This document shows, piece after piece, positions 194 through 28,885 of a stretch of DNA of 48,311 nt. Source of the stretch: Amoebophrya sp. A120 (taxonomy: Eukaryota > Protista > Dinoflagellata); contig CAJINV010000006.1 of the NCBI GenBank assembly GCA_905178155.1, positions 1,067,516 to 1,115,826 on the forward strand, written 5' to 3'. Each line of letters opens with the position of its first letter. The stretch's first letter is position 1. The notes below the pieces were generated by a model. The model was not told where the DNA came from, did no database searches, and was given only the letters and a program-made list of their open reading frames with translations. Both the position numbers and the translations under genes were made by a program.

Positions 194-3100
194 GTATTTG
201 AAGAGGCGGATGGACGTCGACAGTCCAGACGAGGGCGGAATCGAGGACTGCGTTGAGGAGGGTTCGTCGCAGGATGTGAAGAGTGGGGCTGCAGCAGCTG
301 CATCGACCCCGGGGCAGCCATCGTCGCAAGCAGATATTCTGGACACCACCGTAACATCTTCAACCCCGGCCGACTTTGACATCGGCGCCGTGCAGCTGGA
401 CCCGCTGGTGTGGAAGCAGGATTTGGCCCAGCAGAGGGGGATGTGGACGGGAGGTGATGGGGTTTTTCACAAAGTGGAAAATCAAAAGACCAGCGGAGGA
501 ACAACAGGAACATCAGGTACTAGCGCGAACAAAATGATGAACAACGCGAAGTGCAGGAAAAATAGATCTGTTCGTAGAGGTCTTCTCGCGCCGTCTGATG
601 ATCAAGAAGAAGAAGACTATTTCCTCCTGTCCGAGCAAAACCGCAAGCTCTACACGTCCTTCGGCGAAAACAGCAGAGAGGCGACAGAGCAGGAAGTTTC
701 CAGCCAAACCCAAAGTTTCCGGCGGGCGCTGGAGAGTGTTGACGGGGACAACTCATTTCGGGAAGCCGAGGCGTTGTCGGCTCTCGGGTTTTACCAGGAT
801 GCGGTGAAGGGAACGGATATTTTTACTGTTGATGGCTCATCAACAGCAGAGCAGCCTAGTTACGATCCGTCCCCCCGCCGAGGCAGATTTCTCCGGCCTG
901 TGCAGCAGCCTGGAGACGATTCTCTTCGGGTTGGTTATCAACTGTAAAAATGTCTGGGTCTGGAAGATTGCCGGCTTTGTCATGCACATTTTGCATGACT
1001 CCTCAAGTCTGTGATGCATGCCCTAGCATCACGGATTTTTAGAGGGCTTCCTGATGCCTATTCCGCATGGCAAATGCTCTTTCCGTACTGCAAAATTTGG
1101 ACTCTCTTGGCTGCTCATGCAATACAGATTTTTTTAGAATCCAAAATCAGCAGGATAAGTTGGATTCTTCCAGACCCAGACATTTTTACAGTTGATATTG
1201 GTGCCGCAGCTGCAACCGGCATAGAAACCTCCGTAGAGGGCAAAGCGAAGTCGGCTCTGCGCAGGTTAGGCGAGGACGAACACGGGCGAGTAACCGATTG
1301 GCGGTTCGTTTCCTTAGCAGAAACCTTCCGAGATTTCGAGTTCGTTTCCGCGGCGGAGACTGATATTGACAGTGAAAGAACTGAAAACAACAGTAAGGAG
1401 AAGCAAGATCATGGGTCGAAGAACGAAAAGAAATCGAAATCCACTTCATCCCAGGACCTAGTAGAAGAAGGTGACTTGTTATTGTCCCCCCAGAGCAGAC
1501 GCACCCTGCAGACCGTCCGTCCCCCGAACCCCTTCTGCGACGGCCCACCGCCCGCTGGCGACTGCACAATACCTCTAACCGACGAAGATAAGTGCACGTT
1601 TTATAACAATCTTTTCCAGTCCACCGTCGCGGTTTCCACCGACACCACCTTCGACCCAAATTTCCAATCCAGAGGATTTACCCAGGTCGACACAAGTGTC
1701 GAGTTCGGGTTTAAGAATGAGTTGAAGCTCAAGATGAACGCGCCGAAGGGAAAGTTGATCAAACTGATAATATATCAACTGCAAATGTCTGGGTCTGGAA
1801 GAAGGTTTCCAGACTTGTCATGCAGGTTTTCCATGACCTTGACCCATGAGGTCTGGTATGTAGGACATAGCATGACAGATTCTGTGATAGTTCTATGATG
1901 CCTATTCTGCATGAGAAACTGCATCTCGATTAGCAGAATTCCTGGAAGAAGTGTTTGACGAAGAAGGGAGAACAAATAGAGAAAGACTGCAAAAAGCGGA
2001 GGCTAAGCTGCGCACGAGAATACAAGGCTATACAAGGGAGGGGACATAGACGCAAGCTTTCGGGACTACGACCACCGGACGGAGGTAGACGAAATATACC
2101 AAAAGGAGGCCGGCCCACCAGTGACGGGATACAGGAGAGGAGAAAAAGTCACAACAGGGCAAGGGAAAGAGAAGAAGGGCGAAAAAACAAGAAAGACGGA
2201 ATTTCGGCACTACATGGGAAAGCTTCCGCACGACAACAAGAGAAAATGGGCCCTAGCGGTTCAATATGTGGACGACGGGACTACTGTCCTGAAGTTTTTT
2301 GTAGAAGATATAGAAGTGGTAGCGGCAGCTTTGAGAGCAGCAAGCTGGGCGCGCCAAAAAATCTATGAAACAGAAGGACAATTTTTGGCGCCCATGAAGT
2401 GCGAACTTGCCACGTCGCTGAAAGAGGCAGGCTTTCCAGCCTTTTGGAATTATGTTCGAAGAGAAGGACTTCCTAAAGATCTTAGGAATAAGGATAGTGC
2501 CAACGAACAAGGAGGGACAGCGCAAGGCTCTCAGGGGCCAAGTTCAGCAGAGCATAGGAATAGGGCAGCACCTGGCGTGCCAGGTCATGTCAAGACGGAA
2601 AAAACTAGAGGGGGCGGAGCTGGTGTGGATAGTCCAGGCGTTCTCTGTATCGTCGATGATATATTTTCTACCGGTGACGCAGCTCTATTTCGACATGCAA
2701 GACTGGGCGACGATGCTAGGGGAAATATCGCTAACAACAGCAGAGACGATAGGGATGACAGAGGAAACGGCTGAAGAACTGATGAGAAAGACGAACACAA
2801 ATGCAGAAACCTTCTACCGTGTGGCTTTCGGGGCGAAGATGCTAGGAATTACAGACCCATTCACGCTGGGGCTGAAAACACTAAGAGCAACAGCCCAAGC
2901 AAACGACTTGACAGACCCGGGGAGTTTCATCCAAATGGCAACAATGCCGCTCAAAATAGTAGGTGAATCGAAAGCAGGAATAGCAAGAGCCGTGGAAAGA
3001 AAGATCATGAAGAGAAAAGAAGCTGGCATAGCATTACTGCAGGCACTCAGAGACGGAGCATCGGTAAGGTTGTCTGCGGGGAGCGATCTGCGGGGGGTGG

Positions 3101-6100
3101 GAATAGTAAGAAAAACTAACAAAGTAAAGCCGCAGATGGTACAAAGTCAGCACGTGCGCAGATGCGACAGGAGTCTGCTTGCGGACAAAATAAAACAAGG
3201 GGGGAAAGGCAAGAAAGGGCAAAGTGACTACATGGCGAAGATATGGGTAAAACACACGGAAAAGGAAGAGGCCACGACGGTAACAATAGAGGAATGGAAA
3301 GGGAAAGAAGAGCACATGGCAACAATTGAAACGAGGCAGGATCACCTAAAGACAGAAGTTAGGACAGAAGAACGAAAATTCGTAGCGTATTGCAATAACG
3401 CCATAAGAGCGATAGAGATGGTGAAGAAGCAGCAACGCGAAGGGAGTGGAGGGGTGTGCGTGTGCTTGCTGGATTGCGACGAGATGAAAGAGAAAACGCG
3501 GGGGCTCCTGCGGAAAGAACAAGGGAGAGCGCTAGAGCTGCAGGAGGAAATAGAAAAAGCAGAGGAACAGATCCCGGGATTAGCAGCAGCCAGGCGCTGG
3601 GGGAAGCAGAACGCGCCCAAAACCCTCGCAAAGAGAGAAGCACAAGGGGGCTATACAGAAGTGATACCCTTGAAGGTGGCAAACGTATCGAAGCACGACG
3701 ACGAATATGCCGAATGGGTTCAGTACGATTTCGGGGCTAAAAATGTACCGACAAAACCGGTCTGGGAATGGCCGGAAATCAATGCCAAAAATAGAAAGAC
3801 AAGTGTGCATCTACCGGAAGACTATAGGAGATGAAAAGAAAGAAGGGCAGAAAACGGAGAAGGGAAGCGGTGACGGCGGGGACGACAGAAAGAAAGGCAG
3901 CGCAGGAGAGAGGAAGGGGAAGGGGGCAGGCAGCAGTGCGAAGGGAAACGCTCGCTGCGGAAAAGGCCCCAAGGGGAACACTGCGCCGACAGACACGAGC
4001 AGGGAGATAGGCAGCGGGTCATTAGCAGAAACAATCAGAAAAATGGTAGAAGGGGAAAAGATAAGAGCACAAAAAGAAGGAAGCGAAATGCTGCAGAGGG
4101 CGCTGGACATAATAGGAAGAGCCACAGACCTACTAGAAACAGCCGAAGACGTTCCACTAGAATCCCGCGCGACGTCGAGCAGCAGCACCAGGAGAGACGT
4201 GCCGGAAATAACAGAAGAGCGAAATGAATCAAAAAAAGAAGAAAAGGACGAAACAGAGGAAGATGCGTATTTCTACCCGGCGCAGGAGTATCAGGGAAGC
4301 CGCCCAGGATATGTGTACAAACTTGGGCATTTTGGCATGGGGTATTATAAGGATCAAGGACCGGAGGAGGCAACGCGGGAGATGTTTCAAAAAATTACGA
4401 TAGGGGGGCCAGGAGGCAAACTGCCCAAGAGGGAAGTCTCGAAAGAACAGAAAACAGCGAGCAAAGAAGTCGCAGGAGATGCGACGCGACATGAGAAGAA
4501 CACGCAGCAAGTGCGCCAAGTGCCGGAAAAGGAGGAGGAAACAGAAGCGACAGCACGAGAAGCAGCAGAACCAGCTGGAGAAGGGGGACTTGGAGGACTG
4601 AGGAAGAAAATCGCTAAAGATATAAGCGAAACAGAGATGGCAAAAGAAGATAAAAAGGAAGAAAAAAGATTCCCAACGCTGGAGGAGCTGAACGAGAGGG
4701 ACCGGAAGCGGGACCGCGAAGAGGCAGCGGAGCGGGAAGACGAGCGCAAGCGGCAGGAAGAAAGGAGATCCATGAAAAGACTGAAGTATGAAAACCCATT
4801 ACAAGATGAGTTAGCCCAGATGTATAGGAACACGCGCTGAGAAATAATGATGAAGGAAATGTTCAAAAATGATGAAAAGAAAGGGAACAGAGAACGAAAC
4901 AGAAGGGCGCATAATGGGGGCGCAGTGTTCTGGGTGTCGGCGGAGGGGAGAGGAAGCAGAGGAAAGAAAAGGAAGAGAAGAAAGAAAGTGGCTCCCTTGG
5001 TCGTCACAGCTAGCCTGCAAGGGCTCCGTTTCCGCCAGCTGAAAGGCACGGCGGTGCTAATCGTCTCGTCCTCGCCAGCCGATAGGCACGGCGCTGCTAT
5101 CCCGTCGTCGTCATTGCGTCCCTTTTACTAGTAGGTGGAAACAGGGTTGCTAAGTTAAAGACTGCGCTAAGGCAGCGCCCCCCTTCCCCAAGGGGCCCCC
5201 CGGGGCGGGCGCGGTGGCGGCTCTGCTAACGCGGAGCTTCAAAGTCCGACTCTACCTATGCGCATAAAAAGTAAGGGCGCGCGGAAGCAGGTCGGTAAAG
5301 TGCTTGAAAGGGGCATGCTTTGGGGTTGCCCGTCATCGTGATAGGGTCAACGTGTGTGACCAATAGACCCCCTGTATATCATAGCGCGCAACCGACCACA
5401 AAAGCAGTAGCGTTTGACGTTTGTAAGAATAACCCCGCAAGGCAACACTGGAGCTCCACCTTGCTCGCGGGCTTGGATGGTAAATCAGGTCAGCCACATC
5501 TAACGCCCACTGGCCGTATACACGCGTAAGAAATCGGAAACGGTTCAGCGGATGCGGTCGGGTGGTACCTGTAGGACGTGGAACGGGTGTCCACCTAGGG
5601 GTATTGGCAGAGGCTAAATCTGTTCTAGCGCCACGGTATTGGCAGAGGCTAAATCTGTTCTAACGCCACCCTGACAGGAGTCAAATGCCAAAGCGATACG
5701 ATGCGACTAGGTCGCACGTGGACAGCTTTTGGTAATCATGCAACACAGATTTCTACGTGATTCAGATTTAGCATTACAAGTTCCAACCTTCGAGACCCAA
5801 ACATATTTGCAATGCATATGATACGGAACGTGGAGTTACCGGTAACTGGCGGCGAAACGCTGTTCGACTTGACCACCTTCTTCCGCGGGCAGATCCAGGA
5901 CCAGAGTCTCTCCTGTTGCCGGCCCGGGGGGACGGTTAATCCTTCTACGCCGTTGATTTCCTTCAGGATAGCAAGAGCTCTACCGATCTTCATGGCGGCG
6001 AACAAAAACGAATTTAGGAATGACCCAGACAGGTACCCTGTGGAAGCGGATTTACCAATCAGATTTGGTGACAATAGTTTCATCGAGTTCAAGTTCATCG

Positions 6101-9100
6101 CGTCCGGGCCGGTGGCGCCGGGGAATGTTTTGGAGATCCAGGGGCCCGCCGGATACCGGTTTGTCCCGGATTTTTTCCAGCTGCGGGATATGGGCCCGGA
6201 GGGGTTCTGTCCCCCCCCGAAGCCGGGGGACGAGGGGTGTGCCTACCCCTATTTGTCGTTGACGGTGAATAGGATTTTGGACAACGGGATGGACCAGCCG
6301 AGGTTGATTCTCACCATGGACACGAAGGACGAAATTTGGTTGAAAATGTACAGGACGATCAACATGGTCACCGTCGAGAAGAAGGAGTACGACGCAACGG
6401 ATCCGGCGAATGTGTATTTGTTAGAAAGAGGGTTGATCGGGGACGATTTGGTGGTGGATGTGAACGCCACGGAAGTTACAAACGTTCTCCCCCCGCCAAG
6501 CTCCATGCCCGATAACCAGATCTACTTTGGCAGGAGGTACGCATTTATGCATTGCAAAAGCATCGTACTAGTATAAACCGCAATACAAATTTCCTTAGCA
6601 TTAGAAATGGAATTTGTAATGCGGATTTGCCTTTCCAAGACCCTCCGGTTTGTTTGAGAAACATAGACCCTCCGGTTTGTTTGAGAACGGATACTATCCC
6701 TTTCCAAATCAAAACACATTAGGACCCGGGGGGACAGGAAGAGCCCCCCGGTAGCGCTAGTCTCACATGGGTGCACACATAAGGACGTTGACGGAGAAAC
6801 ACACACACACACGCAAAAACACGTCGGCCAAAAACAAAAATAAAATGCGTCCTGCACAAACTGCCCTCACTCACTCACCGGGTGGATGCGCCGCCGAGGT
6901 CCGCAGATAGCTTATTGAGAAAAAGAATAAGACTAGTAATAGCTTAGTAAGAAAGAAAAAGATAGAAGTCGCAAAAACTACTACTAATGTTTTTGTGCTA
7001 GAATAGCCGCGCCGCTGAACAACGGGAGACGGCCTGTCCGGTGAGTGAGTACGCCGTCAACTGCTCGCCGGGGCGCTGCGTGGAAGGGCAGCGTCGCCGC
7101 AAGTCGAGCCGGGGAACTAGTTTCTTTGCTTTCGACTGCCTTTTATTTTTTATGTTCCCCGTCATCTCAATTCCCCCTTAACTTGCCGCCTTACTCTTCA
7201 CGGACATCTCGTGGATGACATCAGCGCGTAGAACGGTTCGAACCAGCCTCGGGCTACAAGGCGACAGGTAAACCATCCCTACGCCCTCCGCTTTGACCTT
7301 GACGAAACTGACTACCAAACACTCTGGGGATTTCTATCAGCAACAGCATTGCCGACACCTAGGGCCACGCCACCGCGCCTTCCGAGGGTAGATCAGACGG
7401 ACCACAGAAGGGCGCTGCGAGGTGGCAACGACATCACTGAAGCGGGAGAGCGGATACAAGGCCTTCGCTCAACTGTGTGGTGTGCGTTGTTTACTAGTCC
7501 TAGTTTCATCGTCCGCGTGTTACTAGCGTCCTGACCCTTCAGGTCGTCCCTGCCGCCGGTGGTCACGTCCGCGTGGCGCTATCAGCGAATCAGCGAAAAT
7601 AGGTTATCTCTCTCTCTCTCTCTAATGCGGATTTGCCTTCAGAAAATGCATGACTGCGATTACTACGAGTGCGATACTTTTGCACAGGATAGCATTGCAG
7701 GCGAGGGTACAGGGACCGCAACAGGCGGCGGTATTATAAAGTTTTTTTGTTGTTGCTTGTTCTTTCCAGCATGACAAAATGAGTCTTGTCTTCGAAAATA
7801 AAGTCTTGCATCACAGACTACACGACATGCGATCCGTTCCAAACCATACCAAAACAGCCCCCGCCCAACCACCAGTTCCAGATCAAATTCACAACCTTAG
7901 TCGCGGTCAACAACGGGGAATATCCAAATGACCTCGGCCCCAGCCCAGATTTCAACATGACCCACTGCATCCCCTTTCGAATCAGCAAATCCATCCTCGC
8001 GTTCCATGACCCGGACATCACCTATCCGCTAGAATGGCAGTCCTTCGTCGCCGCAGATTCCTTCCTCGACGTGAAACTCGAGTTCCCCCGGAAGTTCCCG
8101 CAGGATCTAGGGTTGACAAACCTCGAAGTCTACCCGCCTTCTTCCGGGTTTTTCCTCCCGAGAGGGCAAATTTTCAGCGACCGACAAGAATATTTACCGT
8201 TGCAGTTCGCTTCCATCACGGTGAACAAAATCCGGCCGTTCACGGCGCCGGTGGAAATCAACGGGACGACGTTATACCCAGCGACGAAGTACGTGCAAGC
8301 GCCGGGGGGCGTTATCAAATGCAAAAATGTCTGGATCTGGAAGAGTGTAAACTTGTCATGCAGGTTTTCCATGACCCTTGAAGTCTGGAATGCGGGACCT
8401 AGCATGACAGAGTCTGTGAGGTCTCTTTCATGCCTATCCTGCATGAGAAAATCCCTCCCAACTTGGTCAAAAGTGGACAGCTTTTGGCACTCATGCAACA
8501 CAGATTTTTGCATGATTCGGATTTAGCATGACAAGTTGCAATCTTCCAGACTCAGACATTTTTGCAATCCATAGGCGTGAATCTGAAACTAGTCTGCGAC
8601 CGGAACGACTCAACCCCGATAAACAAAGACGTCGAGCTATTATATGTAGAAACGTCCCCACCCCATAGTCAAGTTGGGATCTTAGCAACACAAATCTAGA
8701 AGTTTTGGGAGCCTCGCATGACAAGTTGCAGTTCGTAGTGTACTGCAGGTTCGTAAGGACAGCGGCATCACAAATCCATCTGCTCATCCTGTTCCCGGCA
8801 TTACAAATCCCAAAACACGACTAGCAATTGCCTCTCATGGGGACCCGCATTACAAATGTTTCTGTAGATGCAAATCTGCATGACAACTATGGGGTGGGGA
8901 CGTTTTTACTCAGCATACGAGCCGGTCCAGAACTACCACTGGTACATCATCGGGAACGCGAAAAACCCGACGACCGGGGTGGTTTCTACTCTCGGTTGGG
9001 AGCGGTATGAGCCGAAGGATTTACTCGTTTCCCAGTTCTATGCATTGCAAATATGTCAAGGAATGCAAACTTGTGATGCGCATTTCACAACACATACAAA

Positions 9101-12100
9101 TCTCTCATGCCGCAGCGGCAAAAGCTGCCCACTTTCTGACACCAAAGTGGGGAGTTTGTCATTCGGATTCGGCGTTCCGGAAGCTTTTCGAAATCTGTGA
9201 TACCAGAGCTTCCATGCCAGACCTTCTGCGTCATGCAAAAACAGCATGACTCTTCCAGACCGAGACATATTTGCATTTCATAAGTTCCCGGTGCAGTGGA
9301 ATCCAGAGACGAAGTGGATCGCTGGGTCGCAGGTGGAAGCCATGTTTGAAATCAAATTCAGAATACCGCTGCCCGTCGGTGGCGCAATTTACATCAAAGC
9401 GCCGCCGAATTACCGGTTTAGGTGCCCGATTACGAACATCATGGTCCTATCATATGTAAAAACGTCCCCACCCCAGAGTTGTCATGCAGATTTGCGATTG
9501 CAGGAAGATTTGCAATGCGCATCTCCATGAGAGGCATTGCCAGTCGTGTTTTGGGATTTGTAATGCTGCAAACAGCATAAGCAGATGGATTTGTGATGCG
9601 GTTGTCCTTGCTAACATGCACTACTTACACTACGGACTGCAACTTGTCATGCGTTGCTCTCAAAACTTCTGGATTTGTGTTGCTAAGTTCCCAACTTGAC
9701 TATGGGGGTGGGGACGTTTTTACATATGATAGCTCCCGGAGCCGAGTTACATGCCAATTTGCGTGTTTAACCCCATCCATCCTCTGTTGCAGGGTTGTGG
9801 CAGGATAGAACGGGATCTGCAGCAGGTGACTTTTGACATAAACCGTTTGGAAAACAGGATCGAGTATCTGAAGGAACTGAGCAAAATCAAACCCCAGGAG
9901 ATGACGCCGCAACAGAGATTGACTTTCATCTCCGAAACGGTGAACGGGACGAGGAGGGAATTAGATGTGAAAATGCTGTACAAGAGGGAATTAGAGGAAA
10001 TCATGGAGTACGTGCCGCCACCAAGTTCTGAAACCGATTCAACCACGATCACAACTTTGACGATAACCAGTACCGCGTCTGGCGGGTTCTCGATCACAAA
10101 TACTCCGCCTACAACCACGACAACAGAGCCGCCCACAACCCTCCCCCCGAACGGCCTGGCGACGACCGCCAAGCCGGAGGGGAAGCCGCCGAGCGGGTGC
10201 GAGCTGCGGCACGAGGTCTTGTTTGCTTATCAGACGACGGATTACCCGCTATGAACTGCAAATGTGTTTGGGTCTGGAAGAATTATGCAGAAGACTTCTC
10301 ATGATGCACATTTCGCAAGACCCATGATGTCTGTGATGCATGCTCTAGCATCACAAACTTTTTGAGGGCTTTCTGATGCGCATACTGCATCGTAGCACAA
10401 AATCGACTCCTCTTGCTGGTCATGATGCAATACAGATTTTTTTAGAATCCGAAGACAGCATCAGAAGTTGCCTTCTTCCAGACCCGGACATATTTGCACT
10501 TCATACCCGCCGGTGTTCTACGAAACGAAGATGACCCGGTCGATCCGCGATCCGATCACGGGTATGCATTGCAAAAGCATCGTCAGGAGAGGTCCTAGGA
10601 GTAATCTTCGCAATCATGCATTGCAAATCTCTTTCGCAAGGGAAATCGGCATGACAGATTCCATCTGTCATGCTGAACTAATTTGTAATGCAATCACTAC
10701 TAGAAGCACAAGCAGCGCGACACTTTTGCAATGCATAACTGGCATCCGGCAGGAACGGTCGCAGCAGGTGGCGATCCCGATCATGACCTACAAGTTCAAC
10801 ATCCGGATGGAACTGCCGGATATGCATTGCAAATATCGATCTGTGTCTGGAAACTTGTGATGCTAATTTATGAATTGCGGGGATCACACTGCAATAGGCA
10901 GCCGCGCATGACAAGTTTCTGGGCTCCTTTGTGTTTCGCTTTCCGCATGACAAATAACTACATTTGTGCATGACAGGCAAGCGGCTCTTTATTTCCTGCT
11001 CCCGCATTACAGGTTCAAGACTCACATATTAAGACAAGCATGACAAGCTTGCACTCTACTTCCAGACCCGGACAACATATTTGCATTGGATACCGGAAGC
11101 GGACGCGCAGCTCCCGAACAGCAACCGGTACAACGATTTCGACGTGATTATGCTGGACCGGATGAAGAGAACCATTGACAACAACGTGGCGGTATCCTGT
11201 GCAAAAGTGTCGTACTCGTATTGCAGTCATGCATTACAAATCTTTTTCTTAACGTAAACCCGCATTACAAATTTTCTCTCTCATGCTGAGAGAATTTGCA
11301 ATGCATTTAAATACGAGTACGATACTTTTGCAATGCATAGGCGGTGCCCGTCCCCCAATTCTACACGGACTACAAAGTGACCAACTTCATATGCATCGCA
11401 AGAGCATCGTGCCAAGTAGTAGCAAGCGCATGACAGATTTACTGCGTAGCATGTTGACAAATGGACTTTGTAATGCTGATTTGGCTTCGCAAAGAACATT
11501 TCTCTTGCAGGAATGCGATTAGTGGCGCGTCGTGCACGATGCTCTTGCAGTGGATACTTCACCTTTTGGTACGACCACGAGCGGACGCGGTTCCGCACTC
11601 AGGAGGAAAATAAAGTGATCAACGGGATCGACGAGGCCTATGACCCCTATCCTATGTAAAAACGTCCCCACCCGCCCATAGCTGTCATGCAGATTTGCCA
11701 ATGCAGGAACATTTGTAATGCGCACCGGCATGGGAGGTACTTCCAATCGTGTTGTGGAATTCGTAATGCTGTAAACGGGATACGTGCGTGGCGTTGTGAT
11801 GCGGCTGTGCTTGATAAACTGCACTCCAAGACACAGAGGAACTTGTCATGCGTGACTCTCAAAAGTTCTGGATTCCTGTTGCGAAAGCCCCATCTTGATG
11901 ACTATGGGGTGGGGACGTTTTTGCTCAGCATAACCCGCGCGGAAAAATCATCCCCTTCTATGTCACGATCGCCATCAACGAGCGGATTCCGGCGGGGCGG
12001 GGGTTCAAGGTGATGGAATTTACCGTCCCGGACAATGGGTTTGGCATGGAAATCGCCTTGCCGACGGATGTCCAAGTTCTCTCCGAGGCCGTGCCGGTGC

Positions 12101-13841
12101 GAAGCTGGGGGTGGGATCCGAATTCGGCGCGGATAAAACAACTCTTCTTCAACATGCCGGACATTGACGACATCGACTACAATGGGATCCTATCAAATGT
12201 AAAAATGTCTGGGTCTGGAAGAATGCAACTTGTCATGCTAAAATGGAAGCATGCAAAAATCTGTGTTGCGTGATTACCAAAAGCTGTCCACTTTTGACCT
12301 AATCGAGAGGCAGTTTCTCATGCAGGAGAGGCATGATAGAACTCTCACAGAATCTGTCATGCTCTGTCCTACTTGCCAGACCTCATGAGTCATGTAAAAT
12401 CTGCATGACAAGTCTGGCATTCTTCCAGACCCAGACATTTTTACAGTTGATAGATCCCGGCCGGGCAATTCGCGTTCTCCATCCCCATGAAGCTCCCGGA
12501 CACCACCGAGGCGATTTACGGGCTATCAAGTGCAAATATGTCTGGGTCTGGACAAGCGCAAACTTCTGATGCGCATTTCAGACGACGCAAATATCTGTCA
12601 TGCATGGACAGCAAATGTCACCCATTTCTTATCACTGAGAGTGGGGATTCGTCATGCGGATCAGGCATTGAGAATCCTCCTCAAAACCTGTGATGCTAGG
12701 GCTTGCATGCCAGACTTTCTTGATCAGGTAAAAACAGCATGACAAGTAGCATCTGCACTCATCCAGACCGACACATGTTTGCAGTTGATACGGGCTGCAA
12801 GGCAACAACATTCAGGAGTTCACGTCGCAGGACCGGAATGGGGAGTACATGAACTTCTTCAAAGTCAAATTTTGCAACGACTTTCCGTTTATGCAAGGCA
12901 AAAGCATCGCAGCGTTGTAAATCGCATGACAAATTTTCTCAGCATGATGAGAAATGCAATTTGTAATGCGGATTTAACTTGACAAAAAAATTTGTAAAAT
13001 TACAATTTTTTTTGTCAAGTTAAATCCGCATTTATGCATTGCATAAATGCGATTAGTACGAGTACGAAGATACTTTTGCAATGCATACCCTTCTGCATCG
13101 AGAAACTGGCAGAGTTCAAGGTCCCCGGGTTTCAGTTCAACGACGTCACCAGAGACGACTTCATCGTGCAGCCGGACGGGTTATCCAGTGCAAATATCGA
13201 TCTGGGTCTGGAAGAGTGCAACTTGTGATGCTGTGTTTGGATTCTACAAAAATCTGTATTGCATGAGCAGCGAAATACGGAGTCCACCTCTTGCTCTTGC
13301 TACGCGAAGAGGGCGTTTGTAATGCGGGTTCGGCATGATCAAGACGGCCTCAAAAAATCTGTGATGCTAGGGCGTACATCACAGACATCATGGCTCACGC
13401 GAAACGTGCATGACAAGTTCGCATCCTTCCAGGAGACCCAGACATATTTGCGATGCATACGGGTTTGGCAGCGAAAAATACAGTCGGACGACTGATCGGG
13501 TGGTAATATCCTGTGCAAAAGTATCGTACTCGTAGTGATCGCAATCATGCATTACAAATCTCCCTCTTAACCGAAATCGGCATTACAAATTCCATTTTTC
13601 ATGCTGAGGGAATTTGTCATGCGATTTATATATACTAGTACGATGCTTTTGCATTGCATAGGTAAAAACGCTGGCTGATTTTCAAGTCGACGAAGGCCCG
13701 CAGTCGTCGGGGGCGACTTCTCGTAGAGGGATTAAATGGAGCAGCATCAGTGGCATCCTCGCTGGAGGCGGTATTTGGTGGTTGGGTACAACTTTGATGG
13801 TAGCGCTTTCGTACAGCCATCATGTTCATGCGGTTGCTTAG
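194..13841 (+). CDS. Gene 1 (5'-partial): large multi-exon, >=1500-aa putative GPI-anchored/surface protein of unknown family
   Basis: Exons 194-935, 1203-1772, 5824-6545, 7697-7730, 7804-8312, 8579-8637, 8923-9038, 9288-9447, 9737-10249, 10511-10562, 10743-10820, 11098-11192, 11345-11389, 11562-11647, 11938-12190, 12458-12523, 12796-12889, 13093-13181, 13465-13506, 13666-13841 join in frame (4500 nt from 195 to TAG). Recurrent 'I.I.aP.gyrF' beta-rich motifs, Thr/Pro linker, C-terminus ...QSSGATSRRGIKWSSISGILAGGGIWWLGTTLMVALSYSHHVHAVA*. Confidence 0.85.
936..1197. mobile_element. Introner family A
   Basis: TIR TATCAACTGTAAAAATGTCTGGGTCTGGAAGA; DR TTGGT at 931-935 and 1198-1202; removal restores frame. 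Confidence 0.95.
1936..4840 (+). pseudogene. Reverse transcriptase (palm/thumb) plus long charged C-terminal extension, broken by frameshifts
   Basis: Frameshifts at G-run ~2040-2043, T-run 2442-2445 (deleting one T gives EAGFPAFGIMFEEKDFLKILG) and ~3825; ORFs 2121-2774, 2452-3834, 3707-4840. Confidence 0.7.
5600..5669. repeat. 35-bp tandem duplication in the retroelement 3' UTR
   Basis: GGTATTGGCAGAGGCTAAATCTGTTCTARCGCCAC x2. Confidence 0.9.
6546..7691. mobile_element. Introner family B interrupted by a SINE-like insert
   Basis: TATGCATTGCAAAAGCATCGTAC ... GCGATACTTTTGCACAGGATA; DR GCATT. Confidence 0.9.
6634..7622 (+). mobile_element. Non-coding SINE-like / non-autonomous non-LTR element
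   Basis: 17-bp TSD TAATGCGGATTTGCCTT (6617-6633, 7623-7639); (TC)8 tail 7607-7622; 23-bp duplication near the 5' end. Confidence 0.8.
7731..7803 (+). other. Probable canonical GT-AG intron (73 nt)
   Basis: GTATTA...TAAAG; phase-0 join gives QQAA|SCITDYTTC. Confidence 0.6.
8313..8573. mobile_element. Introner family A
   Basis: TIRs; DR GGCGT; frame restored. Confidence 0.95.
8638..8917. mobile_element. Introner family C (AAACGTCCCCACCCC TIR)
   Basis: DR CGAGC; frame restored. Confidence 0.95.
9039..9282. mobile_element. Introner family A
   Basis: DR AGTTC; closely similar to 43553-43804. Confidence 0.95.
9448..9731. mobile_element. Introner family C
   Basis: TIR TATCATATGTAAAAACGTCCCCACCCC; DR GGTCC/GCTCC. 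Confidence 0.95.
10250..10505. mobile_element. Introner family A
   Basis: DR CCCGC. Confidence 0.95.
10563..10737. mobile_element. Introner family B
   Basis: TATGCATTGCAAAAG TIR; DR ACGGG/ACTGG. Confidence 0.9.
10821..11092. mobile_element. Introner family A variant
   Basis: DR CCGGA. Confidence 0.9.
11193..11339. mobile_element. Introner family B
   Basis: DR GGCGG. Confidence 0.95.
11390..11556. mobile_element. Introner family B variant
   Basis: GCAAGAGCATCGTGC inverted repeat; DR CTTCA. Confidence 0.9.
11648..11932. mobile_element. Introner family C
   Basis: DR ACCCC/ACCCG (synonymous Pro). Confidence 0.95.
12191..12452. mobile_element. Introner family A (opposite orientation to 8313-8573)
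   Basis: DR GATCC. Confidence 0.95.
12524..12790. mobile_element. Introner family A
   Basis: DR CGGGC. Confidence 0.95.
12890..13087. mobile_element. Introner family B with internal palindrome
   Basis: DR CCGTT/CCCTT; inverted repeat 12965-13032. Confidence 0.9.
13182..13459. mobile_element. Introner family A
   Basis: DR CGGGT. Confidence 0.95.
13507..13660. mobile_element. Introner family B
   Basis: DR GGTAA. Confidence 0.95.
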
Positions 13842-14803: not shown

Positions 14804-15394
14804 ACCTGCAGTAACTGGGTTCATCTTCATTCATCGTGAGGCCGAGCCAGATGCTGTGTAGTTTGTACATGTTGCAAAAAGTAGAAAAGCAGGACCATGG
14901 TTATTTGTCGTGCTGCAAACGCGCGCTTTGAGTGCAGTTCCCTCAATAATTGTCATGCTTTTTTTCGTTCTTATCTTTCCTCTCGTGCTGAAGAGAATAC
15001 AAAACAGAAATAGATTTTTCGTACCTCGTTCTCGTAAGGCTGTATTCGCGCCGCACCAGCATGCCGTCGTACTCCTGTCGTGTGGATCAATAATTTCAAC
15101 AATACCCGCTGAAGCTGAACACATCCTTCGTCCGTTTCTCTCGTGAAGGTGATGTATTCTAGTCCGAAGTCGTGCAACGGTTGCGGTTGTGGTAGTTATA
15201 GTTTTTAGCAAGACAGCACTTGATCTTGTTTTCATCTCCCAGCAGGACCAGGAAGTGGCTTTGTAAAACCCGCTTGATTTTTTCCTTGTTTTCGTTTCTT
15301 TTGCCGCATTTATTTTGCGACTTTACATTCACTAAACGTAAACGTGACAAAACGTCGTCACTTTTGCAGAATCTTCTGTTGCTCCGCGTATTAC

Positions 15395-18300
15395 ATGCTT
15401 TTTGTACCTGCTGCTCCTGCTCCTGCTAGCGCAAAAGGAAAACGAAAAACATTCAGCATGTCCTTAGCCACCTTGTCGCCGCGTTTCTCGTTCTCGCGCG
15501 AACGCTTCTTTCGCCGCGGCGCTAGTTCTTGCAGTTCATTGTCACAAAAATGGCTGGCTTCTTCGGGTCTACTTCTACTTGTGGTTCATCACGACAAGAC
15601 CGGGCAGCTGCTAGGAGTGCAAGAAGCTTTGGCGGTCTCGTTCATGTCCAAGATGAAGATGAAGCTGCAGCAGAACAAAAAGAAAACCTCAACATTTGCA
15701 TCGAAGATCATGAAGGAGCGGCTTCCTGCTCGGGGCCTCCCAAGAAGTGGAAGAACGGGAGCACAGGAGCTACACACAACAGGTGGGAGCCACGATCATG
15801 AGGCCTTCTTCTACAACAAGACTAGCTCAACATCGGTGGAACAAGATGAACAAAGCTTCTTTTTGCAAAAGCACGAGGCTACCTTGAGCGGCGCGACTTG
15901 TTCGCTTTCGCGTGCGGAGCGTGGAAGGAACGGTATCACACAGAAAAGTACACCGAACCGAGTGCACCAGAGTCAGAAAATAAAAAAATTCAGAATCTGT
16001 TGTTGTTATGCTGCTACTTTACATAAATTGGCGCCATTCCAAAACTCTAAAAACAAGAACTCAAACTCTGTAGATACACAGAGTACTAGCGAGGCATTTT
16101 ATTTTTTGGTGTGCAAAAGAAAAAAAAATACAATTTTTACTGCGCGAAGGCTAGGAAAAGGGTGTTAGAATGAAAGTAAAAGTATCATCTCACGACGTCG
16201 GACGGCCAACAGGCACTTTTTTTTCCCGCAAACAGAACGGCATGACATGATAGTTCTTCTCGAGATACCCTGGTGAAAAGTACCAATGGGTTCTTTACTT
16301 TTCTGTACAATAAACGGAGGGCCTGGGGGCTACGGATACTGCCGCAACGCCAGCAGTGGCATGGTCAAGAGCGATTGCAAGCTTTGCATGAGATGTAGCG
16401 GTCGCAGTTGGCTGAAATACATCGATACAGCCACCGGAAGTGCGACGTCTTGGCAGCTGGATACGATGCCGCGGAGTTGGAGGGAGTTGGAGTTCAACAC
16501 GGGAACAGGGGAGCTGTTGAAGGGGGGCTGTGATATTCCAAGCGGGACGTTGGGAAAGATGAACCACAAGGCATGCCTGGAGAAAAATCTCGACAAATTG
16601 TACGAAGACCACGCTTGGAACGAGCAGGATCTAGACATCGACACTCCTCGTCTCGTTAATTTGAAGGTGAACGGCGATGTCTGGAGGCATTACACGGCAG
16701 AGGAGAATGTTAGATGCGAGGCACGGATGGCGATGAAGAAATCCGGAGCCTCGGGCTCCGTAGAAGTATGCATTGCAAATATGATGTCTGGGTCTGGAAA
16801 CTTGTAATGCTGCGTTGGGAATAGTGAAAAATGCCCTGTAATGCACAGCCAAGCATGAAAAATATCTGCGCTTCTTTGCGTTGCGTTTTTCTTTTTCGCA
16901 TGACAAACTGCGTTTTTGCATGACAAGCAAAAGGGTCTGCTCTTCTCGGACACGCGTCACAAACTTTTTAGTCATGCCAGACAAGCATGACAGACCTTGC
17001 ATCCTTCTAGACCCAGACATATTTGCACTTGATAAGAACAGCGCTTCGACAACGGCGGCTGGGAGACAGCTCCGAGTGGCAGTGTCGACTGGAATATGAC
17101 AGTGCACAACTCCCCCTCCCCCTCCCTTGTCATGCAAATTTCCCGAATCCAGGCTGTGCCTCTTGTCACTGTTTGCATGACAAGTTCTGGTAGCCCAAAT
17201 AGCACTACACTCCAGTTTAAATCTGTCATGCAAAGCCCGCATTTTTGCGAATGCTCGCATTGCCGTTTATGCTTATACAAATGAGGGGGAGGCGGGGGAG
17301 TTGTGCACTGTCATATGGAAGACACAGATGGCCCCCGTGGGGTGGCACAAGGTGGAACAGTGGAAAGAGATAGGCGATGAACTCGAGGAGGCCGCGCAGC
17401 GACTGGGCGACAATTTCTTTGTGGTCAGTTTGTCCGCCTTTGCTCCCTCCTGCGGTAGCGAGAAGTACTGCGGGGATTCAGACCACACATGGGATAACGA
17501 TGAAAACGATTTTGCGGCTCATCGCAACAACTGTGAGTGCAAGGCGTGTACGCGGTGCAAACTATAGTGTGTCTAGGTGTGGAAAAAATAAAACGGGCCT
17601 TGTGCTTCTTGTATCTTTAAAATATAAATATATAAAATTGCTTGTATAGCATTGGTGCTGCTGGCAAGTCTGCATTGCATAACCGACAGGGGCGGCGGCG
17701 CTTCCTTCGTCATCCAAAAGCGAAAGCGCAGACGTTGGTCGAGCTGTTTATGCAAATTGATAATTGGCACTACTCGTACTACCTATCAAGAGAGAAACTT
17801 GTCATGCTTTGTTGCATCATGTGAGTATGTCTGACCCATCCACTATTTGTCCGCATCGCAGGTGTGATATTCCAGACCCAGACACATTTGCATTTGATAG
17901 CGTGCTGCGAGAAGGTGGAGAGGGATGGCAGCTGGTTGGCCACGGTCGACAAATGGCGTTGCGGGGAGAGTGGGTTTTACTCGATCGACGACTATGCGAG
18001 GGAACAAATCAACAGCAAGATCCAACGCGCGAGCATCGAGTTATGGCACTCTCAAACGTTACACTGTCTATTGTCCTCTTATGATATTGACTTGTCCTGC
18101 AAAATGAAAATTGTCAGCAGCCTCGACAAGATTTTGAAGATCAAATAAAGCTACTTCGCGTGACAAATAATTTTGGAAGGGCTAAGAGGCATTGCAATCT
18201 GTGCCGAATTTGTATGTAATACGACTTCGACTTGCGCGGCAGGGCAATAAAGCGCCCTTCCTTTGTTCAACACTTTTGCTACTGTTGCATCTTCTTCACA

Positions 18301-21300: not shown

Positions 21301-22968
21301 GCGTCCCCTCGTACCAACGGGCCTCTCTTCCTCCGTCAGCGGGGTTGTCAGGTTTTTGCGGTCTGGCGACCTACGTTCGCTAGTTCGGGCCGTTGTTGTC
21401 TCCGACGGTTTCGAGTTATAAAAGTTATGGTTTGTGTGACAAGGAGGCAACACGGGCCTAGCGAAGCGGCCCGGGTAGCCAAGGCAGGAACACAAAGCGG
21501 ATTTTTATAAAGAGATACCTCTCTACCATCCGGTCGAATATTGTTGTGGTCCCGGGCGGAAGACCTTAAACTCGACCCAAAGAAAGTAATGCCCTGCGGT
21601 TCAAGTTTCAATAAAATTTTTTTCCTTCCCTTCCCTCCCTTTTATTTCTCGTTACTGTTGTCGAGACAAAGCCCTTATCCCGCGGGGTAAGGGAGTGGGT
21701 TGTCAGGTTTTTGCGGTCTGGCGACCTACGTTCGCTAGTTCGGCCCGTTGTTGTCTCCGACGGTTTCGAGTTATAAAAGTTATGGTTTGTGTGACAAGGA
21801 GGCAACACGGGCCTAGCGAAGCGGCCCGGGTAGCCAAGGCAGGAACAAAAAGCGGATTTTTATAAAGAGATACCTCTCTACCATCCGGTCGAATATTGTT
21901 GTGGTCCCGGGAAGACCTTAAACTCGACCCAAAGAAAGTAATGCCCTGCGGTTCAAGTTTCAATAAAATTTTTTTCCTTCCCTTCCCTCCCTTTTATTTC
22001 TCGTTACTGTTGTCGAGACAAAGCCCTTATCCCGCGGGGTAAGGGAGTGGGTTGTCAGGTTTTTGCGGTCTGGCGACCTACGTTCGCTAGTTCGGCCCGT
22101 TGTTGTCTCCGACGGTTTCGAGTTATAAAAACGTGAGGAAAACCGGGCCTATCATTTCGCGCCCCACCCTAGAGGGTATTTCCACCCTAGTGCCCTGCGG
22201 CTCGCACTAGCGTGGTGCACCGAACTAGCCTGGGTCTAGACCACGGCCAGGCTAGGTTTCTGCATGCATATTTGCAATAATTACTACGAGTGCGATACTT
22301 TTGGTTTTGCGCAGGATAATCAATTGACGGAGACTACAACCAGGATGGTGATGGTACCCGTATCCAAGTGATGAAAACATCAAGTGTTAATATTTGCTCC
22401 GCCACAGAAGATGAAAGTAGTACGGAGTTTTATTTCGATACAAGAAGAAGATGAAGAAGTACTCACAGCGCAGTACGCGCACGCCGGGGGTAGGAATTTG
22501 CTGCTCTAGTATTTTTGCGTGGCAGCATGGTGTTTCCACGCATATTCGAGATGATTTTCGATTTCGTCCTTTGATGGACATTATAGTGAGCACGAAACTG
22601 GTGATAAAAAAAATTGCATATAGCCTAAGAACCATGTAAAGAGATGAACGCATAATTCGCTGTGGGATGGGCAGACGGACGGGGACACTTGATTTTCTTG
22701 TTTTCATAACCCTTTCTCCGGCGATGCGGGTGGTGTATCCTGGGCAAAAGTATCGTACTCGTAGTAATCGCAGTGATGCATTACAAATCTCGTTCATAAG
22801 GCAAATCAGCATCACAAATCCCATTTGTTATGAGGAGCGAATTTGTATTGCAATTACTACTAGTACGATACGTTTGCAGTTCATATGAAGCAGGCGCGGG
22901 CGATACTCCTCGGAACTTCGGCTGATGCGGGTGAAGTTGCCACCCAACGGGTTGGTGTGTGCTGCTGA
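15395..22968 (+). CDS. Gene 2: Cys/Trp-rich putative secreted protein with Ser/Thr/Pro tail (intron-rich paralog of 27299-28885); 3' end uncertain
   Basis: Exons 15395-15933, 16318-16766, 17040-17094, 17321-17548, 17905-18041, 18357-18472, 18647-18707, then tentative 22324-22360, 22714-22735, 22891-22968; aligns with paralog (CSGRSWLKYIDTATG, MAPVGWHK, ELEEAAQRLGDNF, SLSAFAPSCGS, CECxACC). Confidence 0.75.
15934..16312. mobile_element. Old/degenerate introner
   Basis: TATCACACAGAAAAGTA / TACTTTTCTGTACAATA; DR AACGG; frame restored. Confidence 0.8.
16767..17034. mobile_element. Introner family A
   Basis: DR AGAAG/AGAAC; absent in paralog. Confidence 0.9.
17095..17315. mobile_element. Introner family D
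   Basis: Perfect TIR TATGACAGTGCACAACTCCCCC; DR TGGAA; single TGGAA in paralog. Confidence 0.95.
17549..17899. mobile_element. Degenerate introner family A (TAC start)
   Basis: DR GCGTG; same position as 24266-24528; single GCGTG in the intron-free paralog. Confidence 0.85.
18042..18351. mobile_element. Degenerate introner family E
   Basis: Left end TATGGCACTCTCAAACGTTACA resembles 39469; DR decayed (CGAGT/TGAAG); frame restored. Confidence 0.65.
18473..18641. mobile_element. Introner family F
   Basis: AAATTTCCCGTA TIR; reverse copy of 25670-25820; DR decayed. Confidence 0.8.
18800..22256. mobile_element. CTAG-rich inverted-repeat element, itself split by a 3.2-kb insert bounded by a 36-bp duplication
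   Basis: CTAGGGTG motifs at left and CACCCTAG at right; terminal hairpin 22225-22255; 36-bp DR at 18895-18930 and 22128-22163; 58-bp DR at 19338-19395 and 20662-20719. Confidence 0.65.
21342..22130. repeat. ~353-bp tandem repeat, 2.2 copies
   Basis: Units start at 21342, 21697 and 22049 (GGGTTGTCAGGTTTTTGCGG...), nearly identical. Confidence 0.95.
22361..22708. mobile_element. Degenerate introner
   Basis: TAT...ATCAAGTGT / ACACTTGAT...ATA; DR ACCCG/ACCCT. Confidence 0.55.
22736..22885. mobile_element. Introner family B
   Basis: TIRs clear; DR TGGTG/TGAAG. Confidence 0.85.
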
Positions 22969-26126: not shown

Positions 26127-27298
26127 ATGCCATGCACTTAGCTATCATGATGATGATCACGAACAATGCCACTTCTGTACTACCTGTACTAGATTTAAAC
26201 AAAATCTATAGCGTCTAGACCCTTCTCCTTCTCGTCTGCACCAGTGTAATTTTTCGTATCATTTTCCTTTTCATTTCACCCCAGCCCCACGGAACAGCTC
26301 CGTCCGACAACATTCCAGAACTTCCGTATATTAGATGTGCATCGTTTATACAAATTTTTTTCTTTAGAAGATTCTTTTTTTCGTCATTCACATTCAAATT
26401 TTTACATTCGACCCTTATCTTCCTATGTGTCGCACCATGATTAAATGTTGCCACTGAAGACTTTCTTACTCGTTATTGTCTTTCTGCAAACAACCATGAA
26501 GGAAGTAGTGCGTACATGTAGACCTCCAACTTCTAGTAGCCTGATTTCAATACCAGCTCCCCCGTCCTCGTGCTTTCCCCCTGCTTCCCCCATCAAGACA
26601 GAGACCTGAAATAAACGTGCGAACCCCGACAAGAAATAGCAGTTGTGACTTAGGGCCTGAGAAGATCACAGTTCCTAGTAAGCCTGCTACTTGACCGCAA
26701 CAAGATGCGACGTTCTGAATGTACCAGTATAATATGATCCGATCTGTGCGGTAGTGGTCCTCCTGGACAAGCAGAGCTACGATTTGTCGTGCTAGTTGTA
26801 TTATGATTATCATTTTGTGGTATTCTCAATATCAATTCTCGTGCTATATTTCGTTCTTTTCTGTCGTGCTGATGCTGAAGAGAAAATAAAATCGTGCTGG
26901 ATTCGTACTTTTCGAAGTTGTAATATTTGCGGCGGCGCCGCACCGGCGTGCGGTCATACTTGTTGTACTCCTGTCGTGCGGACCAATTTCAACAAGACCC
27001 ACAAGAAATGTCTTCCGTTTCTCGTTTCTCCGTTTCTCTCGTGTTGGTGCGTTGTAACGCTTAGTAAAAGTTGTAGTTAAATTTAGCACGACGCGACTTC
27101 GTCTTGTTTTCATCTCCTTCTCCAGGAAGTGGTTTTGTACACGAACCCGTACCTTGATTCCCGTGTTTTTGTTTCATCTTTTGCCTCATTCATTTTTCGC
27201 GAATTTTGATTTTCATTCACTAGACGTCACAAAAGGAAACGTCGGCAGCTTTGTAAGTACAACCGAACCTATTCTTGTTGCTCCGTGTAAGTATTCAT

Positions 27299-28885
27299 AT
27301 GATTTTTGTACCTGCAGCTCCCGCTAGTCCTTGTGCAAAAGCAAAAGGAAAAACGACCAGCATGATGTTCTCGTCCTCCACAACCGCCTTCCTTCGGCGT
27401 GAACAAGGCCCGTCCTCGCGCGGACGCTTCTGTCGCCGCGGCAGTTGCAGTTCATTGCCACAGTGGCTGGCTGCAGCTGGGGGTCTAGTTGCGATTTTTC
27501 TCGACAAGAGCGGGCTTCCAGGAGTGCAGGACGCCGTTGCGTTGTCGTTCATGACAAAGATGAAGATGAAACTGCACCAGCAGAGGAAGAAGTCCTCTGT
27601 TTCGGAGATGGAGCAGCTTCCTCGACGGAGGAGTCCAACAGGTACTGTAACATCAACTCCGGTCATGAACGAACAAGGGGACAAAAAGAGTCGGTCTCCA
27701 CCTGGAAGGAGCGGCTTTCTGGAACATCAAAGGCAGGGGCGCAGCACGAGAATAAAAAAAATGAAAGCGAAGTGTCATGGAAAGGAGCTGTTTGAGTACG
27801 TCGCGGCTGGAGGACCGCGTAACTACGATTACAGGCACGACGGCCATGGCATGGTAAAAAACGAGTGCAAACTTTGTCTCAAGTGCAGTGGTCGCAGCTG
27901 GCTGAAATACATCGATACCGCCACCGGACAGGCGACATCGTGGCAAATGAAGAACACGCCGCGCAACTGGAGGTGGGAGAAATACAGTTACTGTGCAAAC
28001 GGGGAAAACCACGGAGGGTGCCTCGAGAGCAATCTTGACGAGCTCTACAAAAATGGGTGGAACGAGGGGCATCTCACGTTCTTTGGAGATGCGCCGGACT
28101 ACGACCGGAGCCCCAACATTGTTGACAAAGACGGGCTCCACCACCTGGAGGGCAGATGCGAGGCGCGGACTGCGATGAAAAAAAGGGGACTTTCGGGTCC
28201 CTTACAGCAGCGCTTTGACAGCCATGCGTGGGCCACAGCTCCGAGCGGGGAGGGCATTGACTGGAAAACCAGAATGGCCCCCGTGGGGTGGCACAAGACT
28301 GCGGCCTGGGAGAACATCAGCAATGAACTGGAAGAGGCCGCGCAACGGCTGGGGGACAATTTCCTCGTTGTCAGCTTGTCAGCATTCGCTCCCTCCTGCG
28401 GTTCCCGTTTGTACTGCCGCGGCACCTCCGCCGGCTACACCTGGGATGATCACAGTGCCGCGGCCCGTTACTCCATTTGCGAGTGCGAGGCGTGCTGCGG
28501 GAGGACTGAGAGGGAAATGTCCTTGTTTAGCTTCCGCGATATGTGGCGTTGCGCCGAGATTGGGTTTTTCTCCCTCGACGTTTATGCCGGCAAGATTTCC
28601 CCTGATATCGAACGCACGTCCACATTCCCTTCTACCACCGCACCCCCGGAGACGCCGGCGCCCGACAAACCGAAAACCGCACCCCCGGAGACGCCGGCGC
28701 CCGAAAAACCGAAAACCGAGGCACCGAAGACGCCGGCGCCCGAAAAACCGAAAACCGAGTCACCGGAAACGCCGGCGCCTGCAAAACCGAAAACCGAGGC
28801 ACCGGTGAGTGAAAATGCTGGTGACAATCATGTCGACGCCAACGGGAACCAGCGAGAGCAGCTGCTGCAGCCTGCACGCATATGA
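27299..28885 (+). CDS. Gene 3: intron-free Cys/Trp-rich putative secreted protein with 13-aa Pro/Lys/Thr repeats
   Basis: Single ~528-aa ORF; hydrophobic WLAAAGGLVAIFL segment; APPETPAPEKPKT-type repeats x4 (~28640-28800); paralog of gene 2. Confidence 0.85.
   Translation: MIFVPAAPASPCAKAKGKTTSMMFSSSTTAFLRREQGPSSRGRFCRRGSCSSLPQWLAAAGGLVAIFLDKSGLPGVQDAVALSFMTKMKMKLHQQRKKSSVSEMEQLPRRRSPTGTVTSTPVMNEQGDKKSRSPPGRSGFLEHQRQGRSTRIKKMKAKCHGKELFEYVAAGGPRNYDYRHDGHGMVKNECKLCLKCSGRSWLKYIDTATGQATSWQMKNTPRNWRWEKYSYCANGENHGGCLESNLDELYKNGWNEGHLTFFGDAPDYDRSPNIVDKDGLHHLEGRCEARTAMKKRGLSGPLQQRFDSHAWATAPSGEGIDWKTRMAPVGWHKTAAWENISNELEEAAQRLGDNFLVVSLSAFAPSCGSRLYCRGTSAGYTWDDHSAAARYSICECEACCGRTEREMSLFSFRDMWRCAEIGFFSLDVYAGKISPDIERTSTFPSTTAPPETPAPDKPKTAPPETPAPEKPKTEAPKTPAPEKPKTESPETPAPAKPKTEAPVSENAGDNHVDANGNQREQLLQPARI

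Follow-up and report, generated by a model that had tools for sequence, protein, structure and literature searches.

A stretch of 48,311 nt from the dinoflagellate Amoebophrya sp. A120 (assembly GCA_905178155.1, contig CAJINV010000006.1, positions 1,067,516 to 1,115,826 of the forward strand; hereafter the window) contains a host gene with an intron of 4051 nt. We suggest, with a probability of about 0.85, that positions 1934-5710 in this intron are a dead copy of a divergent long interspersed nuclear element (LINE) of the apurinic/apyrimidinic endonuclease (APE) type. The copy lies inside an introner, a member of a repeated intron family bounded by terminal inverted repeats (TIRs), and the introner is apparently still excised with the element in it. 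The features are listed in Table 1.

The introner is split in two. In brief, a profile built from nine introner copies of the window was used to scan the window and the surroundings of L001, a related metagenome stretch described below. It matches 1773-1936 (model positions 1-158, E 3e-35) and 5704-5818 (model positions 148-262, E 3e-22). Both halves are collinear with an empty copy at 12191-12452 on the negative strand, and this empty sister reads CTCGATTAG-GTCAAAAGTGGAC unbroken. The family measures about 262 nt, has TIRs, and is present in 18 near-full copies that make up about 11% of the window. The split member has what is expected of an introner: TIRs, direct repeats at the boundaries, non-canonical ends, repeated copies, and an exon join in contigs that are probably RNA. 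A preliminary description of the window, made from its letters, had proposed an element hidden in an introner, and the match of both halves to empty copies agrees with this.

The junction letters given in that description are all present. The target copies read CGATTAG (1927-1933) and CGACTAG (5704-5710), the tail reads GCGAT-ACGAT-GCGAC (5693-5707), and the hairpin TGCGAC-TAG-GTCGCA spans 5702-5716. The three letters that set the right flank (5702-5716) apart from the empty sisters lengthen this hairpin to 6 bp, possibly as a result of templated repair after the insertion.

Table 1. Features in and around the interrupted introner (positions in the window)
Feature	Position	Strand	Basis and remarks
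Host exon, 3' part of a long transcript continuing upstream of the window	195..930	+	Open reading frame; joined to 1198 in an X3 contig (14068 nt) and an X6 contig
Empty TIR introner of the same family, TTGGT direct repeat; intron 931-1197 and equivalent placements	936..1197	+	Profile; skipped in joined contigs
Host exon upstream of the interrupted intron	1198..1772	+	0 differences to X3 and X6 contigs over 1198-1769
Left half of the interrupted introner, with 5' TIR	1773..1933	+	Model 1-158; alignment to empty copy
Left target copy CGATTAG	1927..1933	+	Final TAG also in the element at the cut (window versus L001): 3-nt 5' microhomology
5'-truncated pol frame: end of RT4-RT5 insertion, YVDD (2265-2276), motifs 6-7, thumb, downstream region	1934..3776	+	91% identity to L001 2228-4117
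Charged frame of low complexity at the C-terminus, in which the pol frame likely continues	3777..4840	+	Gain of 4 nt at about 3777 when compared with L001 and with two X1 contigs; no Pfam family reaches cut-off
FYPAQEYQGSRPGYVYKLGHFGMGYYKD (FYPAQEY) peptide, in the C-terminal frame	4271..4354	+	Present; no Pfam family
3' untranslated part; 35-nt tandem duplication at 5600-5669	4841..5692	+	Depth rise from about 5100
(R)CGAT repeats of the tail, running into CGACTAG (5704-5710), the target copy on the right	5693..5710	+	Sequence; alignment
Right half of the introner, with 3' TIR	5711..5818	+	Model 148-262; predicted pairing with 1780-1823
Host exon downstream	5821..6545	+	Joined directly to 1769 in X3 and X6 contigs
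Next intron: introner of a second family, interrupted at 6634-7622 by a retro-like insert of 989 nt, perfect 17-bp duplication, (CT)n tail	6546..7696	+	Separate event

The identity of the element comes mainly from L001, the only stretch confirmed among 14 candidates in a metagenome scan. Window positions 1931-3800 are 91% identical to it. L001 encodes 1465 aa in one uninterrupted frame that is still open at its 5' end, with motifs that we take to be of APE type (YRRP 63, GDLN 106, IDFM 169 and SDH 213) and then of reverse transcriptase (RT; GMDG 506, LDASNYF 664, QG 723 and YVDD 855), each set in order. Because an APE-type endonuclease precedes the RT in this frame, the family would be an APE-type LINE. 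The RT assignment is supported by the motif order, by homology to a protein described below and by a language-model search. In that search (ESM Atlas, best 30 matches per query), 23 of 30 matches of L001 aa 1-230 fall in Exo_endo_phos clusters. For aa 480-1100, 26 of 30 fall in RVT_1 clusters, with RVT_1 on 27-39% of the members among the rows listed.

The homologous protein, P0001, is encoded by gene model g13847.t1 of Amoebophrya sp. AT5.2. It is the lone match of the 470-aa window frame among 1.84 billion representatives (E 2.9e-4). The two window frames match successive parts of it, with YVDD on YVDD, and L001 is 24% identical to it over 754 aa (E 9e-52). The spacing from QG to YVDD is 132 aa in L001, where about 40 aa is usual, and the long stretch is common to P0001. 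In the gene model of P0001, sequence of this RT family is joined to a V-SNARE_C domain (aa 56-120); an element lying within or next to a host gene was probably read as exons. By eye only, aa 1200-1310 (approximately) of P0001 look RNase H-like.

The match between L001 and the window ends at window position 3800. At L001 4117-4398 the frame continues for about 90 codons into unrelated sequence, and on this alignment L001 is a 3'-truncated or recombined copy. L001 also carries, at 6873-8954 on the negative strand, an intronless open reading frame (ORF) of 693 aa without a Pfam match. Its GGDTN motif presumably recalls endonuclease/exonuclease/phosphatase (EEP) nucleases.

The preliminary description had listed the RT motifs YVDD, KCE, KILG and LGITDP. 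They are found in the window spread over two frames, in the same order as in P0001 and in the open frame of L001. It had also called the element a non-long terminal repeat (non-LTR) retrotransposon, and this is upheld by the APE and RT of the L001 copy, by the dN/dS and by the 3'-rising contig depth, both given below. It saw no RNase H, CCHC knuckle or restriction-like endonuclease, which holds for the window copy; the missing nuclease would be an N-terminal APE that was lost by 5' truncation. The C-terminal frame has no Pfam RNase H match at E<=10 and no C-x-C/H pattern. An element of the restriction-enzyme-like endonuclease (REL) type was considered and rejected, as the REL-type signature (CCHC plus PD-(D/E)xK) is absent from the C-terminal frame and an APE is present. 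A Helitron was likewise rejected; we found no evidence of a replication initiator and an APE-RT frame instead. The module that had been called conserved-looking, the FYPAQEY peptide, is present, but its conservation finds no support, with no homologue in a word-based protein search.

The window copy would yield no working protein, because the endonuclease and half of the RT are missing and the frame carries three indels. The copy starts within the RT4-RT5 stretch, between RT motifs 4 and 5, at a cut that corresponds to L001 2231. L001 has TAG right before the cut point, giving 3 nt of microhomology with the target at the 5' junction. Compared with L001 there is a 1-nt loss at about 2022, a 23-nt loss at about 2425 and a 4-nt gain at about 3777. 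None of these lies in a homopolymer, and the homopolymer frameshifts suspected in the preliminary description, as sequencing errors, are rejected on this ground.

These breaks were compared with contigs of X1, a DNA-like run. At 2022 another form has a depth of 40.8 out of 67.4, and the remainder (about 27, about single-copy) has the form of the window. At 3777 two contigs with the other form account for 154.9 of a depth of 279.3. The break at 2425 is not among the 12 of 18 X1 indels listed. Over 2875-3188 one X1 contig is identical to the window copy (0 differences, depth 26.4), beside a diverged contig. Of the 371 single-letter variants in X1, 40 are listed and 26 of these lie within 1934-3776; 25 of the 26 carry the L001 letter, so L001-like copies are present in the same run. 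The dN/dS between the window and L001 is 0.149 over 611 codons, which supports purifying selection on the frame in the family. We found no second copy of the insert in the window and no terminal repeats within 1934-5710.

The summed contig depth in X1, a rough measure and not a copy number, is 24-28 on unique exons, 52-373 along the body of the element and 929-4611 over 5114-5730. The rise from about 5100 is 5- to 20-fold relative to the body. This gradient is as expected from 5' truncation, and the family is multi-copy.

The last 600-700 nt or so of the element (4990-5706) have a base composition unlike that of the body, and X1 contains forms of the 3' part with internal deletions (5223-5296, 5271-5430 and 5375-5454). 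Possibly, these 600-700 nt are a separate, non-autonomous partner element. Rfam and ARAGORN gave no match on the 3' part or the window, and a tRNA-headed short interspersed nuclear element (SINE) or a ribozyme is accordingly not supported. The predicted fold of the 3' end is only slightly more stable than those of shuffled sequences (z -1.67).

Excision of the entire non-canonical intron (4051 nt) likely still takes place in the host, as the paired introner ends are intact. The exon joins come from contigs of two of the four runs aligned, X3 and X6. Both are from one study, are RNA by guess and derive from samples other than that of X1. No run listed as matching is recorded as RNA. In each, a single contig runs through 800-930, 1198-1769 and 5821-5985 with 0 differences. 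The skipped segment of 4051 nt has four equivalent placements (AT..TG, TA..GA, AT..AT and TA..TA), all of them non-canonical. The three host exons joined contain 0 stops across 2033 nt, and retention of the intron would lead to a stop near 1896, in line with the earlier remark that the host exons remain in frame. The terminal arms of the split introner are predicted to pair at -42.8 kcal/mol, weaker than in six empty copies (-54.2 to -76.6 kcal/mol). A predicted fold of the whole 4046-nt introner keeps 34 pairs between 1780-1823 and 5771-5811. The earlier proposal that excision tolerates 4 kb between the TIRs thus gains from exact joins in two probable-RNA runs, with the caveat that their samples are not that of the DNA run.

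In X3, the contig of the host transcript reaches about 12 kb upstream of the window, and the window itself starts inside a (GGGAAACC)n array (1-118). Pfam gave no family for any of the three host exons, nor for a downstream frame that was scanned with them. Low-depth contigs of the 3' part of the element are present in X3 and none of its body in X6; we draw no inference on expression from this. From the raw RNA run X8 just three reads aligned, none of them to the insert, which is equally silent on expression.

We propose the following course of events. The APE would have nicked the introner at a CG near model position 150. The (R)CGAT tail would then have annealed to the target CGAT and primed reverse transcription. 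Synthesis would have stopped between RT motifs 4 and 5, and the new end may have been joined via the 3-nt TAG microhomology that is seen at the junction. The resulting copy, truncated and with three indels, cannot encode a working protein. The terminal repeats are predicted still to pair across 4 kb, and the exons are joined exactly in the probable-RNA contigs. Of the microhomology-primed target-primed reverse transcription (TPRT) in the preliminary description, the 3' end is plausible, and at the 5' end the TAG microhomology is there in the letters.

Several results weigh against a dead APE-type LINE that is still spliced out. No Pfam family reached its cut-off for any piece, either the eight window frames or L001. 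The RT profile hit that the preliminary description looked for exists only as a sub-threshold match (RVT_1 on L001, E 0.018), which comes close to no profile hit, and the APE region of L001 has no Pfam match. Sequence searches of the PDB returned no RT and no nuclease. Both AlphaFold models are of low confidence (pLDDT 38.8 and 34.6), and a Foldseek search gave no match at E<=0.001; these results are uninformative. The Atlas matches scored 0.92-0.94 and shared 145-164 features, fewer than the 170 that are typical within a family. A word-based protein search with ORF 2422 against longer proteins found 0 of 7995 candidates, one with the P0001 region found P0001 itself only, and no relative was found in viral contigs. 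Judged from these searches, the family is very divergent; it lies below the Pfam cut-offs and its only protein relative is from Amoebophrya. The target-site duplication is either short (3 nt, exact) or imperfect (7 nt, one mismatch), and at both ends it is confounded with microhomology. For the excision, no contig bridges either insert junction among the rows listed. Since X3 and X6 differ from X1 in their samples, their joined exons could derive from an allele without the insert.

That last point leads to another explanation, in which the insert is an artefact of the assembly, or the RNA was transcribed from an insert-free allele, so that the 4-kb intron was never really spliced. The missing bridging contigs and the different samples speak for it. 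We nevertheless regard it as quite improbable, as the X1 contig over 2875-3188 is identical to the window at a depth of 26.4 and the window's form at 2022 is found at about 27. In addition, the exon letters are identical between the DNA and the probable-RNA contigs, and TPRT-like junction marks are not something an assembler makes.

It could also be asked whether the introners descend from the 4-kb unit, which would then be an autonomous TIR element with an RT, and whether the 262-nt copies are its deletion derivatives. The TIRs do bound the whole unit, and a TIR-flanked Amoebophrya family with retroelement homology is reported in the accessible text of PMC12130899. This explanation is largely refuted and very improbable. 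The RT frame is cut mid-domain at the junction and L001 continues for 2.2 kb upstream without introner sequence; moreover, the empty site is continuous and the target letters are duplicated.

A dead LINE copy within an introner leaves the question of how it came to lie at this site. Behind 5706, four X1 contigs form a loose end of the element (agreement 0.75, median 121 nt), in which the tail is extended and then followed by the interior of an introner. A 20-nt piece of it has a single match in the window, at 10390-10409 (0 expected). These positions align to the same introner column as the insertion site, but belong to another introner subfamily. The flank has three mismatches to 10390-10409 and no match within three mismatches to the element's own flank or to the sister copies. 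As the row is a consensus, at least one further event, not four, is proven. Each insertion would have a chance of 0.0018 to hit the same 9-nt site in the same orientation; were this introner family the sole tolerated space, the chance would be about 0.017 (9 of 2 x 262). New here is that at least one other 3' end of the element joins another introner subfamily at about the same site, which hints at targeting like that of Tx1L in Xenopus laevis.

Other observations count against such targeting. The loose ends considered are those listed, six of 59. A second row among them leaves the element at 5687 (four contigs, agreement 0.59), and its sequence is not introner-like and was not found in the window. 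The 3' part is missing from L001, whose 10 kb also contain no copy of this introner. We put a preference of the family for this introner site, as a safe haven, at about even odds, and strict homing below that. The fullest version, in which TIR introners have one fixed internal site to which a deeply divergent LINE lineage of Syndiniales homes, is one that we hold tentatively, at somewhat less than an even chance. Such an element would be a hyperparasite that gets into protein-coding genes without harm, as the paired ends of the introner get it spliced out at any length.

Chance landing of the same LINE falls just short of an even chance. Here the copy would have survived because introns and intergenic DNA are the sole tolerated space in a compact genome. 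The 18 near-full introner copies, about 11% of the window, offer a large target. Furthermore, the next intron holds an unrelated retro-like insert, as if introners collect insertions generally, the loose end at 5687 is not introner-like, and no such introner surrounds L001. The probability of hitting the same site (0.0018, or about 0.017 if only these introners are tolerated) argues against chance, as does the row at 5706, which adds one to four junctions at the same site. If there is no targeting, the case in the window is a nested insertion of the ordinary kind, by an unusual LINE.

The shared site might also reflect one event, if an old LINE insertion was multiplied together with its introner as a DNA transposon. 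Introners are high-copy TIR elements, the last 600 nt of the element are far deeper than its body, and TIR introner families of A120 reach 7-8 kb with LINE peptide matches (accessible text of PMC12130899). Composite transposition is rather unlikely, as the flank in the 5706 row comes from a different introner subfamily, while the copies of the element are at least 80% alike.

The intron next to the interrupted one is apparently spliced out too. X3 and X6 contigs pass from 6545 into sequence beginning at 7697. Its 989-nt insert is unrelated to the 3' part of the LINE, contains no ORF family and is multi-copy (X1 depth 1434 at 6629-6800). Introners here thus collect such inserts, which supports both tolerance of length and an untargeted insertion.

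Some further features of the window should be noted. An introner of the second family at 12888-13090 seemingly contains a short, near-perfect, AT-rich palindrome (about 12970-13035), possibly a nested miniature inverted-repeat transposable element (MITE). A 352-nt tandem repeat is found at 21342-22130 (2.2 copies, 98% identity). At 34344-36930 a repeat of about 92 nt occurs three times, with spacings of 1086 and 1409 nt, and two of its copies are 98% identical. Long ORFs at 15278-16168 and 27257-28885 have similar N-terminal signal-like segments and no Pfam match, and the latter ends in 13-aa proline-rich repeats.

This case bears on how non-canonical introns are removed in Amoebophrya. A 262-nt introner that foreign sequence has stretched 15-fold, and that is yet removed exactly, amounts to a natural experiment. 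By this argument the cut is defined by the paired ends and not by the length or the interior, and the neighbouring intron is a second case for removal defined by the ends. Since the LINE family escapes the Pfam cut-offs, such elements are probably under-annotated, and they may leak into gene models, as in the V-SNARE fusion of P0001. If the site is targeted, this would be a Tx1L-like safe-haven strategy aimed at introns. If homing holds, long retro-homologous "introner families" of Amoebophrya would be explained as nested composites, and non-canonical splicing there would be defined by ends alone.

Amoebophrya introners were described with non-canonical ends, TIRs, direct repeats of 3-5 nt and a length of about 260 nt (PMC7789003). 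According to the accessible text of that study, the intron analysis was restricted to 40-1000 bp, non-LTR elements were noted in Amoebophrya, no U1 snRNA was found, and hairpin-joined intron ends were proposed. The present intron is alike in its ends, TIRs and direct repeats, and differs in its 4051 nt and its nested retroelement. For A120, the accessible text of PMC12130899 reports introner families, classed as TIR DNA or unknown, with LINE peptide matches. Their long members reach about 7.1 kb (fam16 and fam6) and about 8.3 kb (fam2), and secondary insertions into pre-existing introns were filtered. These families resemble our case in being TIR introners with long members and LINE peptide matches. 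They differ in their classification as TIR DNA or unknown, and the main text, as far as accessible, does not use "nested" or "within introners". A literature search, with little coverage of subscription journals, found no paper on a LINE nested in or aimed at introners.

Compared with APE-type LINEs (L1/Tx1, RTE and I/Jockey), the family is alike in having an N-terminal APE and then an RT in one frame. Likewise shared are 5' truncation with microhomology, a simple-repeat 3' tail and 3' ends that outnumber bodies. As in those elements there are no LTR-like repeats, here within 1934-5710, the full 5' end of the family lying outside the copies seen. It is unlike them in falling below all Pfam cut-offs, in the 132 aa between QG and YVDD, and in a long charged C-terminus in which no CCHC, RNase H or REL motif was detected. 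The closest parallel in arrangement comes from Xenopus laevis, where Tx1L and Tx2L have the DNA transposon Tx1D as their insertion site (accessible text of PMC1950540 and PMC6719617). In both systems an APE-type LINE lies within a TIR DNA transposon, and the same safe-haven logic would apply if the junctions at 5706 hold. Judged from the same text, our case is unlike theirs in that the host transposon is also an intron of a protein-coding gene and in that the target letters differ between introner subfamilies. The likeness drawn here is one of arrangement.

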